Source: Anaerolineae bacterium
GTDB taxonomy: Bacteria; Chloroflexota; Anaerolineae; B4-G1; SLSP01
NCBI GenBank assembly: GCA_049974845.1
Contig: JBNGCP010000016.1
Span: 1 to 54,453, forward strand
Direction of reading: 5' to 3'
Length of the DNA: 54,453 nucleotides
A program made the position numbers and the translations under genes. The notes below the pieces were generated by a model. The model saw only the letters and a program-made list of their open reading frames with translations, was not told the origin of the DNA and did no database searches. This document shows positions 27,981-32,800 of this stretch, piece by piece; within the stretch, counting starts at the first letter, position 1, and each line of letters starts with the position of its first letter.

Positions 27981-28070
27981 GCGTCAGACGCCGAGGGTCG
28001 GCGTGGAGCGCGCGGCCTATCGGGCGACGTGATGACCTTCTCTGGCGAGGATATCAAGGGGAAGTCGACG

Positions 28071-28982
28071 ATGCACCACCGTGAACTGGGCGCCACTGGT
28101 GTCCTGATCTCCGAGGTAGGGATGGGGTGTAATCGCCTAGGTGAAGCCAATGTGCCCGACGCGCACTGGATCGAGCTGGTGAGGCGTGCGGTGGATCTCG
28201 GCGTCAATCTCTTTGACACATCAGAGTCCTACGGCTGGGGACGGAGCGAGGAGATGCTTGGCAGGGCTCTCGAGGGGCGCCAGGATGTGCTCATCGCCAC
28301 CAAGATGGCCCGAATCCGAGAGACCGGAGCCCATGACTTTTCGTGTCAGCGGATGGTCGCGCAGGTTGAGGGCAGCCTTCGACGGTTGCGGCGGGACGTG
28401 ATCGATATCTACCAGCTGCACAGCCCAACCCGAGAGGCGCTGGAGCGGTACGATTGGGCTGCGGGCATGGCGAAGCTGAAGGCACAGGGCAAGATCAGGT
28501 TTGCTGCTGTGGCTGTGCGTGACGAAGCAGATGGGATCTGGCTCATGGAGGAGGGCCTCGTGGACGTGCTTCAGATCACCTACAACATCTTTCACAGCGA
28601 GCCGGAGTCACGTCTGTTCGACCTGGCGTTGGCGAAAGGGGTGGGACTTCTGTGCCGAATGCCTCTGGCCCGCGGAGTCCTTACGGGCAAGTTTGCGCCG
28701 GATCAGGAAGTCGACGAGGGGCATCGTGCGCTCCTGGACGGCGATCGGATGTGGGAGAATATCCGTAGGGCCGAGGATCTGAGATCGATCGCGGCGGAAT
28801 TCCCGGGTGGTATGACCCGGATGGCCCTGCAGTTTAGCCTAACGCCCAGAGCCGTCTCCGCCGTCATCCCAGGGGCCCGCAAGATCAGCCAGCTTGAGGA
28901 GAATGTCGCCGCGTCGAACGGCAGCGGGTTGCCGCCGGACGTGCGCGCTGCTGTTCGGGGCGTGCAAGAGACGTGGTCCTAG
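28071..28982 (+). CDS. aldo/keto reductase
   Basis: ELGATGVLISEVGMG, FDTSESYG, ATK, IDIYQLH, PLARGVLTGK, VIPGA. Confidence 0.92.
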   Translation: MHHRELGATGVLISEVGMGCNRLGEANVPDAHWIELVRRAVDLGVNLFDTSESYGWGRSEEMLGRALEGRQDVLIATKMARIRETGAHDFSCQRMVAQVEGSLRRLRRDVIDIYQLHSPTREALERYDWAAGMAKLKAQGKIRFAAVAVRDEADGIWLMEEGLVDVLQITYNIFHSEPESRLFDLALAKGVGLLCRMPLARGVLTGKFAPDQEVDEGHRALLDGDRMWENIRRAEDLRSIAAEFPGGMTRMALQFSLTPRAVSAVIPGARKISQLEENVAASNGSGLPPDVRAAVRGVQETWS

Positions 28983-29028
28983 GCACGCGGCTCCTGCTTG
29001 GTAGGGCACCTCTCGATCGATGAAACGG

Positions 29029-29095
29029 GCAGCCCCCGAGGGTCTAGACCTTCGGGGGCTGCTGTTGACCGCTGGGCTACGGAACACCGTAGCCC
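29029..29095. terminator. two hairpins between convergent genes (probable bidirectional terminator)
   Basis: gcagcccccga / tcgggggctgc at 29029-29062 and gggctacgg / ccgtagccc at 29074-29095. Confidence 0.7.
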
Positions 29096-29106
29096 TCATC
29101 CTGTTG

Positions 29107-29250
29107 TTATTGGAAGATGCGGATCAGGCCCTTCAGCAGATGCGTCAGCCGAGATGTGCGCTCAAGCTGCAGGCGCTCCCTGCTGCGGTCCCGTATCTTC
29201 TCCTCTGCAATGATCCTTGCCGTGAATATCGGCTCGATGTTGTTTTCCAT
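29107..29250 (-). CDS. 47-aa small protein downstream of the c-di-AMP riboswitch (absent from the ORF track)
   Basis: AGGAGG RBS, ATG 29250 to TAA 29107: MENNIEPIFTARIIAEEKIRDRSRERLQLERTSRLTHLLKGLIRIFQ. Confidence 0.75.
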   Translation of the reverse strand: MENNIEPIFTARIIAEEKIRDRSRERLQLERTSRLTHLLKGLIRIFQ

Positions 29251-29379
29251 CGTTCTCAACCTCCTGTGTCCTTTCCCATGGCCTGAACCTGTGACGGCCC
29301 AAGCGCTCCTTTCGTGTCTGTGAGCAACAACCCACCTCGCCTACAGGCGAGGCCCCTCGTTGCGTTGGGCAAACCCAGC

Positions 29380-29409
29380 AAAAAAGGACACCTCGACTTC
29401 GGTGTCCTT
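29380..29409 (-). terminator. riboswitch expression-platform terminator
   Basis: Minus strand AAGGACACC-gaagtcga-GGTGTCCTT-TTTT immediately after the aptamer. Confidence 0.85.
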
Positions 29410-29411
29410 CT

Positions 29412-29546
29412 TTCACGCCTGCGAAGTTAGCTGTCGGACTCGGGCCAAAGAAGATAGCCCTCCATCGAGGCTTACGCCCCATGATTCGCCCCACACAATT
29501 GGTTCCTCCGCTGGATGCCCACACGGACATCCATTCGGCGGTGCGT
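29412..29546 (-). ncRNA. cyclic di-AMP (ydaO/yuaA) riboswitch
   Basis: Minus strand CGCCGAAT...AGCGGAGGAACC...TGGGGCGAATC...AGGG...GGCCCGAGTCCGACAGCTAACTTCGCAGGCG reproduces the conserved ydaO segments in order. Confidence 0.92.
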
Positions 29547-29598
29547 TCTCTAGCTTGTCCAAGTTCGGTTGCTGCTCTATCAACTTTCGACAATCAAC

Positions 29599-29626
29599 AT
29601 GTTACCCGGATGCTGGTGTAAGTCAA
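29599..29626 (-). promoter_or_regulatory. sigma70 promoter of the riboswitch transcript
   Basis: Minus strand TTGACT-N16-TAACAT about 50 nt before the aptamer. Confidence 0.6.
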
Positions 29627-29892
29627 GGGCGCGCCTAAGAGTGAAGAGCGTGACTGCTCAGAATCTGGGGTGAAAAGCCGACTCCAGATGGAGGAGGCCT
29701 GCACTTAGGGTATTGCGACAAGCTATGGTAGAATGTCCGTATGCGCGCGCTTACGCCCGTTCTCGGGACTCGAGATCTGGCGGGGGATTCTCAATAGGCG
29801 CAAGGGTGCGGGAGGCGATGTGCTGAGCGCGCGCTGTGTACTGCCCAATCAACTACTCAATCTATCGTTCTACATGCAGAGGAGGCATTTGG

Positions 29893-32800
29893 ATGGCACT
29901 GACGTTGGAATGGCAAGATCGCATACGTGCTTGGCGCGAGGAGCTGCCACGGCACTTCTACCACCCTTTGGGCGCGGTGGCCCTGGAGGGGTTCGTGACT
30001 CGGGAGCAGCTGACGCCGGAGGAGGCGATGGCGCGGGAGTTCGCGCCGATGGACCCCGGCACCCGGTGGGGCGCGAAATGGGAATACGGTTGGTTCCGTG
30101 GCGCCTTCACGCTTCCGGAGGCCGCTGCGGGCAAGCGCATCGCTCTGGCGGTCGATGTGGGAGGCGAGAGCATCATCTTCGTGAACGGCGAGCCCGCGGG
30201 CGCACGCGATCGCATGCATCGTGAAATCACATTGGCCACGTCGGGCGAGCCCGGCGCGCGTTACGAGATTCTCATCGAGGCCTATGCAGGACACGGACCT
30301 CGTGTCGCCAGCATCGGCCCGACGCCCCCGGATCGCGAGACGGTGCCGGAGCCCGGTCCTACCCAGGCTACGGTCGGGGAGACCACCTTCGGCATCTGGC
30401 AGGAGGAGGTCTATCAATTGTGGGTCGACGTCGAGACCCTCTGGCAGACGCGGGAGAACTTGGACGAGAACAGCCTCCGCCTCATGGAAATCGACCGGGG
30501 GCTGCGGGACTTCACGCTCACCGTCGACCCTGAGCTCCCACGGGAGATGATGCTGGAGACGGTGCGCGAGGGCCGCAAGCGGCTGCGCCCGTTGCTGACC
30601 TGTGTCAACGGCTCAACGGCTCCGGAGATGTTCGCTTTCGGACACTCGCACATTGACGTCGCGTGGCTCTGGCCACTGGCCGAGACCGAGCGCAAGATGG
30701 GGCGGACGATGGCCACCCAGCTGGCGCTGATGGAGGAGTATCCGGAGTACATCTTCGTTCAGAGCCAACCGCATCTTTACCGGATGGCTGAGGAGCGATA
30801 CCCAGAGATCTACAAGCGGCTTAAGGCTGCCGCGGAGCGGGGACAGCTCATCCCGGAGGGGGCGACCTGGGTGGAACCCGACACCAATATCTCTGGTGGC
30901 GAAAGCCTGATTCGCCAGTTTGTTCACGGGCAGCGCTTCTTCCGAGATGAGTTCGGAGTCGAGTGCGAGATGCTTTGGCTGCCTGACGTCTTCGGCTACT
31001 CGGGCGCCCTGCCGCAGATCATGCGAGGGTGCGGCGTGAAGTACTTCTCCACTCAGAAGATCTTCTGGGCTTACCACGGCGGCGCGCCCTTTCCCTACAA
31101 TACCTTTATCTGGGAGGGCATCGACGGCTCCGAGGTCTACGTCCATCTTCACAACGACTACAACGCGCGCATGAATCCGGAGAGCGTCATCGGTCGGTGG
31201 AACGAGCGGGTGCAGAAGGATGGATTCTCGACCCGGCTCTATCCCTTCGGGTATGGCGATGGCGGCGGCGGTCCAACGCGCAATCACCTGGAGTTCGCGC
31301 GGCGTCTCAAAGATCTCGAGGGCGTGCCCAAGGTCAGGATGGCAGCGCCAAAGGCGTACTTCGAGGATCAGGAGGCCAAGGGGTGGCCCGAGGTGCGGTA
31401 CGTCGGCGAGCTCTACTTCCAGGCGCATCGCGGCACCCTCACCTCACAGGCCCGCACGAAGCGGGGAAATCGCAAGAGCGAGTTCGCGCTGCGGCGCGCG
31501 GAGCTCTGGGGCGTGGCAGCGCGAGCGCTGGCTGATTTCGAGTTTTCGGCTGCGTTGCTCGATGAGGCGTGGAAGGGCGTTTTGCTGAACCAGTTCCACG
31601 ACATCCTCCCGGGCTCGTCGATCGAGCGTGTCTACGAGGAGGCGGAGGCGCTGTACGACGAGGTCATCGACGCGGCGGACTGCGTTGCGACGGATGCGGC
31701 GATGGCTCTAACGCGGGGCGATGAGGGGATGACGGTGTTCAACGACCTCTCCTGGTCGCGCAGTGGGCTGGTGCCCTTGCCCGACGGCTTCGACGGCGCT
31801 GAGGATGACGCCGGAGCGCCGCTGCCGGTGCAACGCGTCGGCGACGACCTGCTCGTGGAGGTCACGGTTCCCTCGTGTGGCTGGACCACCGTGCGAAACA
31901 CTGCGGCTGCCGATGTTCCGAATACGCTTAAGGTGAACGAGCGGCTGTTGGAAAACGCCCATCTTCGCGCCGAGTTCAACGAGCGCGGTGAGATCGTGAG
32001 CCTCGTTCACAAGACGTCCGATCTGGGCGAGCTGGCGGTAGGCCCGTGCAACAGCTTTGAGATGTACAAGGATGTGCCGAGCCGGTGGGATGCCTGGGAC
32101 ATCGACAGCATCTATGAGGAGACGCCCGTCCCGTTGGATGAGCCGGCGGAGATCGAGGTGCTCTCGGAGGGACCGCTGGTCGCAACGCTCAAGGTCACCC
32201 GTAAACTGCACAATTCGGTGATGTCGCAGGAGATCAGCCTCCGGCGCGATAGCCAAAGGCTGGACTTCAAGACCACGATCGACTGGCAGGAACGGCACAA
32301 GCTGCTGAAGGTGGCGTTCCCGGTCAACATCCATGCGAATGAGGCTACGCACGAGATCCAGTTCGGTTACATCGAGCGCCCAAATCACCGGTCCCGGCCC
32401 TTCGATGCCGATCGGTTCGAGGTGGTGAACCACAAGTGGTCGGCGCTGGTCCAGGGTAACGGCGGCGTCGCTGTGCTGAACGACTGCAAATACGGCGTCA
32501 ACGTTCTCGACAAGGCGATCAAGCTGACGCTTCTGAAAGCGCCCCTGGCCCCGGACATGCACGCGGATCTAGGCGTTCAGGAGTTCACCTACGCGCTGTA
32601 CGTGTGGGACGGCGCCTTCGCCGATAGCGATGTCGTGCGCGAGGGCTACGATCTCAACGCGCCGTTGATGACCGCGCCGGGAGATGCCGGCACGCACTCA
32701 CTCTTCGAGGTCGATGCGCCGAGTGTCGTGATCGAGACGGTAAAGCCGGCGGAGGATGGCTCTGATGACGTCATCGTTCGCCTCTACGAGTCCAAGCGCA

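Follow-up and report, generated by a model that had tools for sequence, protein, structure and literature searches.

Riboswitches that sense cyclic di-AMP (c-di-AMP) usually have transporters, cell-wall enzymes or the operons for them as their outputs, and the solved c-di-AMP aptamers contain a pseudoknot between a loop and the tail. Small proteins that act in stress responses are familiar from a different setting, namely the enterobacteria, where MntS, SgrT, AcrZ, and KdpF are stress-induced proteins of fewer than 50 amino acids (aa) that bind a larger transport protein and that stand under protein or sRNA regulators, not under a riboswitch. The characterized c-di-AMP riboswitches with terminators turn genes OFF upon ligand binding (PMC10636490). 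The closest working analogue of the locus described here is the CD1980.2 family of C. difficile, whose members are 58-aa membrane-associated proteins; their genes stand alone, headed by class I c-di-GMP riboswitches working by premature termination, and the family is described as multi-copy and lineage-restricted, with certain paralogs that have no riboswitch, with membrane association and a sporulation phenotype demonstrated, and with no homologs outside C. difficile (PMC13724677). A literature search returned no c-di-AMP riboswitch with a small protein as its entire cargo; the founding ydaO gene-association surveys and their supplements lie outside the scope of that search, and a prior listing there is possible.

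This report deals with a locus in the window, i.e., the whole stretch of 54,453 nt of Anaerolineae DNA that was analyzed. It resembles the RF00379 (ydaO/yuaA) class of c-di-AMP riboswitches, exemplified by the kimA and ktrAB leaders of B. subtilis, in that it matches the covariance model over its full length, bears an intrinsic terminator directly after the aptamer, resides in a host with a diadenylate cyclase and has sister copies ahead of transporters. By these marks the RNA element appears to be an ordinary member of its class. It is the predicted cargo that is unusual: a lone 47-codon gene outside known families, known here from sequence alone, instead of a transporter, a cell-wall hydrolase or an operon. 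With the CD1980.2 family the locus has its architecture in common and its architecture only, that is, a cyclic-dinucleotide riboswitch with a terminator and a stand-alone small gene as the only cargo; both families are multi-copy and lineage-restricted and include paralogs without a riboswitch (here at G461:C37). The two differ in ligand and aptamer class (c-di-GMP there, c-di-AMP here), in protein length (58 aa there, 45–52 aa here), and in that membrane association and a phenotype are known there and the genes alone here (PMC13724677). No 58-aa protein was present among the 26 profile matches to the family described below in 1.84 billion proteins, a distinction drawn by profile search. The enterobacterial proteins, which have no sequence relation to the family, provide by analogy only its working model, that of a small partner-binding modulator. 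Our core reading of the locus, which we regard as probable, is that of a riboswitch-gated and translated small-protein gene that is the sole cargo of its switch.

Organization of the Unit

The unit occupies the minus strand and is flanked by plus-strand genes for an aldo/keto reductase (28029–28982) and a GH38 alpha-mannosidase (ORF from 29836). Its features are the following:

29626–29599, minus strand: candidate promoter, sigma-70-like (TTGACT-16-TAACAT), proposed by consensus match only, ~48 nt 5′ of the aptamer
29550–29401, minus strand: c-di-AMP riboswitch aptamer, RF00379 (ydaO/yuaA class), 80.6 bits over the full model
29414–29379, minus strand: predicted intrinsic terminator serving as expression platform, core GGACACC/GGUGUCC followed by U6, the 5′ arm continuing the 3′ tail of the aptamer
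29378–29266, minus strand: spacer with two hairpins (z −1.57, unexceptional), unconserved in length and sequence
29265–29260, minus strand: Shine-Dalgarno (SD) sequence AGGAGG, 9 nt 5′ of the ATG
29250–29107, minus strand: small-protein gene of 47 codons and a TAA stop, ATG at 29250, product predicted to form two helices
29095–29074 and 29062–29029, minus strand: hairpin pair 3′ of the stop codon (−54.7 kcal/mol, z −7.25)

An earlier note on this DNA had described a complete minus-strand unit, and each of its parts, i.e., the promoter-like site, the aptamer, the terminator, the AGGAGG, the 47-aa ORF and the double hairpin, could be located. Its spacer of ~130 nt exists, the figure being an approximation, as the ATG lies 150 nt from the aptamer end and the SD ~113 nt from the terminator; likewise, the double hairpin is present, only just beyond the interval that had been assigned to the unit (29095–29029). 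The promoter-like pair is the sole such site in 28700–30000, where shuffles give 0.3 ± 0.6, and 13 of 17 homologous loci have a −35/−10-like pair 38–54 nt 5′ of their aptamer, with L017–L020 deviating. At the other end, the hairpin at 29062–29029 is a perfect 11+3-pair G+C hairpin between the small gene and the convergent aldo/keto reductase gene. The unit likely ends at the hairpin pair, which may also serve as a two-way terminator common to the small gene and the reductase gene; because the T-run behind the hairpins is weak (CCGUUUCAU), we can only infer such a terminator role.

The Riboswitch and Its Expression Platform

RF00379 is the sole Rfam match in the 54 kb window. The covariance model aligned to 29550–29401 over positions 1–134 of 134; the score of 80.6 bits (E 3.3e-17) is well above the cut-off of 38 and bears out the ydaO riboswitch of the earlier note. 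The A/G-rich 3′ tail of the aptamer leads directly into the terminator hairpin, which consists of GAAAGAAGGACACC, 8 nt and GGUGUCCUUUUUUG (29414–29379). The minimum-energy fold of 29550–29378 contains both the aptamer helices and the terminator, and folding of the leader identified no antiterminator helix. The terminator hairpin and its T-run recur in 16 of the 16 readable homologous loci (L017 is N-masked), the T-run being interrupted (TTTCTT) in two of them. By sequence reading, the loop CUUCUUU (29453–29447) is complementary over 7 nt to the tail AAAGAAG (29413–29407), a tail stretch that is near-invariant across loci. The element is identified, as judged from the model match and the predicted hairpin, as a c-di-AMP riboswitch whose expression platform is of the terminator type.

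The genome holds three RF00379 copies, this unit included, and the other two precede an ABC_membrane protein and an MFS transporter. A diadenylate cyclase gene is found in the same genome (PF02457, E 1.2e-41), and the ligand c-di-AMP is therefore plausibly present in the host. Class precedent, as represented by PMC10636490, together with the coexistence of aptamer and terminator in one fold, points to an OFF switch.

A Conserved Protein-Coding Gene

Of the 21 other species in the genus, 16 yielded homologs of the 47-aa peptide in a six-frame search of 61 related genomes; every genome of at least 90% completeness (14 of 14) had one, as did two of the seven below 90%. Fifteen of the 16 were retrieved at E ≤ 0.002 and one at E 0.11, the latter being matched by the later family profile at E 1.4e-19. 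All of these homologs start with ATG, measure 45–50 aa, have an open frame and are 28–51% identical to the window peptide, and each of the 16 readable loci has a GGAG/AGGA-type SD 6–10 nt 5′ of the start codon.

Nucleotide substitutions among these sequences are those of a coding frame. The dN/dS ratio (Nei-Gojobori) ranges from 0.11 to 0.34 in the 15 closest pairs, and its median is 0.33 among the 77 pairs, out of 136, for which dS is finite; differences by codon position number 3094, 2165, and 3895, with the third position in excess; and the median pN/pS is 0.58 in frame vs. 0.92 and 1.44 in the shifted-frame controls. The other frames are interrupted by stops in 16/17 and 17/17 sequences. 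ORF length is steady at 45–50 codons, whereas aptamer and ATG stand 74–190 nt apart in the single-ORF loci, and in the pair L004/L005 identity reaches 0.73 in the ORF vs. 0.50 in the spacer. On this comparative evidence the ORF is established as protein-coding and under purifying selection, with homologs in 16 of 21 species and dN/dS of 0.11–0.34 bearing out the protein that had been read from the letters of the window, and we infer that it is translated in vivo.

The same note had held the protein to be unannotated and probably missed by annotation, which proved mistaken, for gene callers do predict the ORF: the window's peptide and many of its homologs already figure in predicted-protein collections, and two homologs are deposited at NCBI as “hypothetical protein [Anaerolineae bacterium].” The gene is therefore uncharacterized rather than missed. 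Positions 28463–29219 are covered by one RNA-library Logan contig, which comprises the 3′ end of the reductase gene and 113 nt of the ORF and from which strand, ends and level cannot be read, so that it is uninformative about transcription; over the aptamer the RNA library gave nothing usable. The stretch itself occurs in oil-field and crude-oil metagenome runs.

The Small Gene as Sole Cargo

Beyond the small gene, the first long ORF is encoded on the opposite strand in all 17 loci, as assessed by ORF length and likeness to the window's reductase, Pfam having been applied to the window's neighbors only. These convergent neighbors are reductase-like in 11 loci, a 215–225-aa protein in four and a HEAT-repeat protein in two, and the divergent upstream neighbor likewise differs among loci. 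That the riboswitch controls nothing but the 47-aa ORF thus agrees with the lack of a co-directional long ORF next to it in all 17 loci, and the ORF is the only predicted cargo of the riboswitch.

Relatives of the protein were sought at any length. When 1.84 billion representative proteins were searched exhaustively with the profile, 26 matched at E ≤ 0.001, of which 25 are 45–52 aa and match end-to-end and one is a 73-aa call matched at residues 25–73; a word-indexed search of 5.8 billion proteins gave 42 matches at E ≤ 0.01, all of 45–50 aa save one 75-aa variant. A 293-aa “cluster member” turned out to be an unrelated LysR-type protein, i.e., clustering noise. Since the relatives are small whatever the length searched, the ORF is not the stump of a longer deleted gene; this was one of the refuting outcomes that the earlier note had named, none of which came about.

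Linkage to the Riboswitch and Spread of the Family

All 16 homolog loci of the genus have a same-strand RF00379 upstream of the ORF, with scores of 63.9–94.7 bits; the three loci fetched for chance-level peptide matches have none. Gene and riboswitch thus co-occur wherever a genus homolog was found, although the count of 16 overstates the independent support because species of one genus are kin. A family-wide RF00379 search of 41 genomes gave g1 4/4, g7 1/1, g15 2/3, and g16 4/4, and none in the other 16 sampled genera. Divergent members of the protein family occur 85–88 nt 3′ of RF00379 in the sister genera g15 and g16, where they are the first SD-preceded ORFs; they follow the pattern MEMW...ITEERL...REPVVL...WLRPIVKSLVGLFL and are matched by the family profile at E 3e-8 to 1.5e-16.

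Several loci hold more than one copy. On the g16 contig G461:C67:15931-16750 (L042/L054), two full units of RF00379 and a 49-aa ORF stand in direct tandem ~435 nt apart, an arrangement that reads as a duplication of the entire switch-plus-gene module. Elsewhere, tandem paralogous ORFs follow a single aptamer, three of them in L018 (990–1653) and two in L019 (1203–1653), and these paralogs come from different subfamilies (MDxWY... and MENDL... types). Altogether, 22 units headed by the riboswitch contained 25 distinct ORFs of the family. When ten more genomes were searched in full with the profile, one extra locus emerged, G461:C37 (L065 1212–1644, g16). It encodes a 49-aa member of the family and, adjoining it, an 88-aa frame with a family-like inner segment, and RF00379 is absent within 1.5 kb at E ≤ 1. 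The ORFs of this locus are read as riboswitch-independent paralogs, and by this evidence the link between gene and riboswitch is not absolute.

A class-wide profile search of 401 genomes returned only seven weak matches (E 3e-4 to 8e-3), which lie in open frames of 150–524 aa and are read as chance; its prefilter overlooked true divergent members in the sister genera sampled, so that absence from the class at large is not to be inferred from it. As delimited by these searches, the family appears to be undescribed and confined to a few genera of one Anaerolineae family.

Other cargoes of RF00379 in these genera deserve a separate mention. The commonest in this bacterial family is an ABC_membrane protein (L002, i.e., G000:C58; L031, L032, L045, L049, and L051) with a conserved N-terminal extension of ~230 aa that contains SDLGxDGxFGEQWLL and Cys-x2-Cys...Cys-x2-Cys and is unrecognized by Pfam. 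A DUF362-domain protein of ~430 aa is another recurrent cargo (L055 1715–3013, G007:C34; L047, L052, and L058), and the riboswitch link could help assign DUF362 a role. At G010:C23 of a congener (L037; RF00379 at 298136–298283, minus strand), an SD-preceded 51-aa ORF (MDSFLMADVERQ...) follows 185 nt on; it was not counted as a family member, the family profile not having reached E 0.01, and could represent either another small cargo or a family member that has diverged strongly.

Features of the Small Protein

In an alignment of 40 sequences, Met1 and Glu17 are invariant and Ala11 is present in at least 90% of the sequences. Conservation extends to an (I/V)-A-E-E-K-(L/I/V)-R core, to the basic block RxxRRE and to the C-terminal end, L-x3-L-x-R-L-F; the linker is variable. 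AlphaFold2 predicted helices at residues 5/6–23 and 34–46 with a modest mean pLDDT of 70.7, equal with 17 or 40 rows, and a homodimer prediction from two copies and the 40-row alignment scored 0.02 where the mark is 0.42, which speaks neither for nor against a dimer. In the C-terminal helix, the best hydrophobic moment over 11 residues is 0.77 both for the window protein and as the family median, vs. 0.51 in shuffles, so that the amphipathic end that had been noticed in the peptide is real; the amphipathicity of the N-terminal helix is indistinguishable from that of shuffles (0.52 vs. 0.54). The median net charge of the family is +2 with about one-third of the residues charged, and no transmembrane segment was found among the 40 family members (maximal 19-residue Kyte-Doolittle mean ≤1.07). 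The membrane-associating effector put forward in the earlier note is conjectural, the amphipathic C-terminal helix being the feature that could be confirmed.

Resemblance to known proteins was sought in several collections. Pfam gave no family for the window peptide, the best value among the 40 members being E 0.0046 (DUF5865, three members); neither NCBIfam (best E 0.045) nor the PDB sequences (best E 0.96) gave a significant match; and Foldseek gave no match at E ≤ 10 for the AlphaFold2 model against the PDB. The best feature scores in the ESM Atlas, 0.79–0.80, belong to unnamed clusters of 44–47 aa, and shuffled proteins reach the same range.

Alternative Readings

The long transporter genes that follow the genome's other RF00379 copies invite the thought that the ORF is what is left of a longer, deleted riboswitch-controlled gene, or else a leader peptide for a downstream gene, but next to no probability attaches to either: the 26 relatives among 1.84 billion proteins match the whole profile at 45–52 aa (the one of 73 aa at residues 25–73), the 293-aa cluster member is unrelated (LysR-type), and no co-directional long ORF comes next in 17 of 17 loci. 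Hardly more credible is a conserved regulatory or antisense RNA gated by the riboswitch, with the ORF incidental to it. Read-through transcripts would be antisense to the convergent neighbor and the strong 3′ hairpins would stabilize such an RNA; however, selection is specific to the frame (pN/pS of 0.58 vs. 0.92 and 1.44), third positions show an excess of differences, both ATG and SD are preserved, and an ORF length of 45–50 aa is kept behind spacers of 74–190 nt. Homology is moreover detectable at the protein level at 28–50% identity, and the convergent neighbor changes between loci (a reductase, a 215–225-aa protein, a HEAT protein). A reversal of polarity is unlikely, though by a lesser degree. 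Polarity could in principle be reversed because the A-rich lower 5′ arm of the terminator is the very stretch complementary to the aptamer loop: the tail AAAGAAG is complementary to the loop CUUCUUU and also makes up the lower 5′ arm of a 13-pair terminator stem, and a ligand that drew this tail into loop-tail pairing would weaken the terminator, the protein then being made at high c-di-AMP. Yet the 7-pair G+C core of the terminator shares just one base with the tail, and the A:U extension cannot pair as long as the U-tract remains within the RNA:DNA hybrid, as is textbook knowledge of intrinsic terminators. The minimum-energy fold, too, accommodates aptamer and terminator together, and the characterized terminator-bearing members of the class are OFF switches (PMC10636490).

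The remaining alternative concerns the protein and is about as improbable as an ON switch. It holds that the product is itself membrane-active, i.e., a cationic amphipathic, toxin- or modulin-like protein that perturbs the membrane or arrests growth at low c-di-AMP. The strongly amphipathic C-terminal helix (median moment 0.77 vs. 0.51), the median net charge of +2 and the abundance of Trp, Phe, and Leu at both ends of the g16 members would all suit such a protein, as would a faint PSMalpha match in one of 40 members (E 0.19), although a match of this kind is at chance level. Against it, the family is devoid of a hydrophobic segment of transmembrane length (maximal 19-residue mean 1.07) and about one-third of its residues are charged, the invariant Glu and the conserved basic RxxRRE block suggest a specific interface, and a toxic product is ill-matched to tandem multi-copy arrays.

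Proposed Mechanism and Implications

Under the preferred reading, that of a riboswitch-gated small-protein gene, the locus would be a self-contained transcription unit composed of a promoter, a c-di-AMP riboswitch with its terminator, and a single gene for a 47-residue protein of helix-linker-helix design. At high c-di-AMP, the folded aptamer would permit the adjacent terminator to form and transcription would end at ~29379. At low c-di-AMP, when the cell is short of K+ or osmolytes, RNA polymerase would read through, the strong SD would drive translation of the ORF, and the small protein would be made alongside the transport proteins of the genome's other RF00379 copies. It could then bind a larger partner through a conserved face (invariant Glu17, and Ala11) and the amphipathic C-terminal helix (L38, L42, and the R-L-F end), the most plausible partners being proteins of transport or of c-di-AMP turnover within the same stress response. 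Binding of a larger partner is the most likely mode of action because the small protein has no enzyme-sized fold; that the protein is a binder or modulator of a larger protein is nonetheless offered as a tentative proposal, one that may well not hold.

The tiny protein looks like a direct output of the c-di-AMP second messenger. If it is made and has a target, it would represent a new type of node in c-di-AMP signaling, the c-di-AMP counterpart to the c-di-GMP small-protein output of C. difficile, and a compact, synthesizable handle (47 residues, one invariant Glu) on osmotic and potassium control in uncultured Anaerolineae. More speculatively, and with a likelihood that we put on the doubtful side, the family may constitute a new class of c-di-AMP “third messengers” that are made only when the nucleotide is scarce and that dock, by the Glu17 face and the C-terminal helix, onto a transporter or onto a diadenylate cyclase or phosphodiesterase, thereby resetting K+/osmolyte balance or c-di-AMP itself. 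Should this third-messenger reading be true, then together with the C. difficile c-di-GMP case it would make the coupling of a cyclic-dinucleotide riboswitch to a stand-alone small protein a general and repeatedly evolved architecture.
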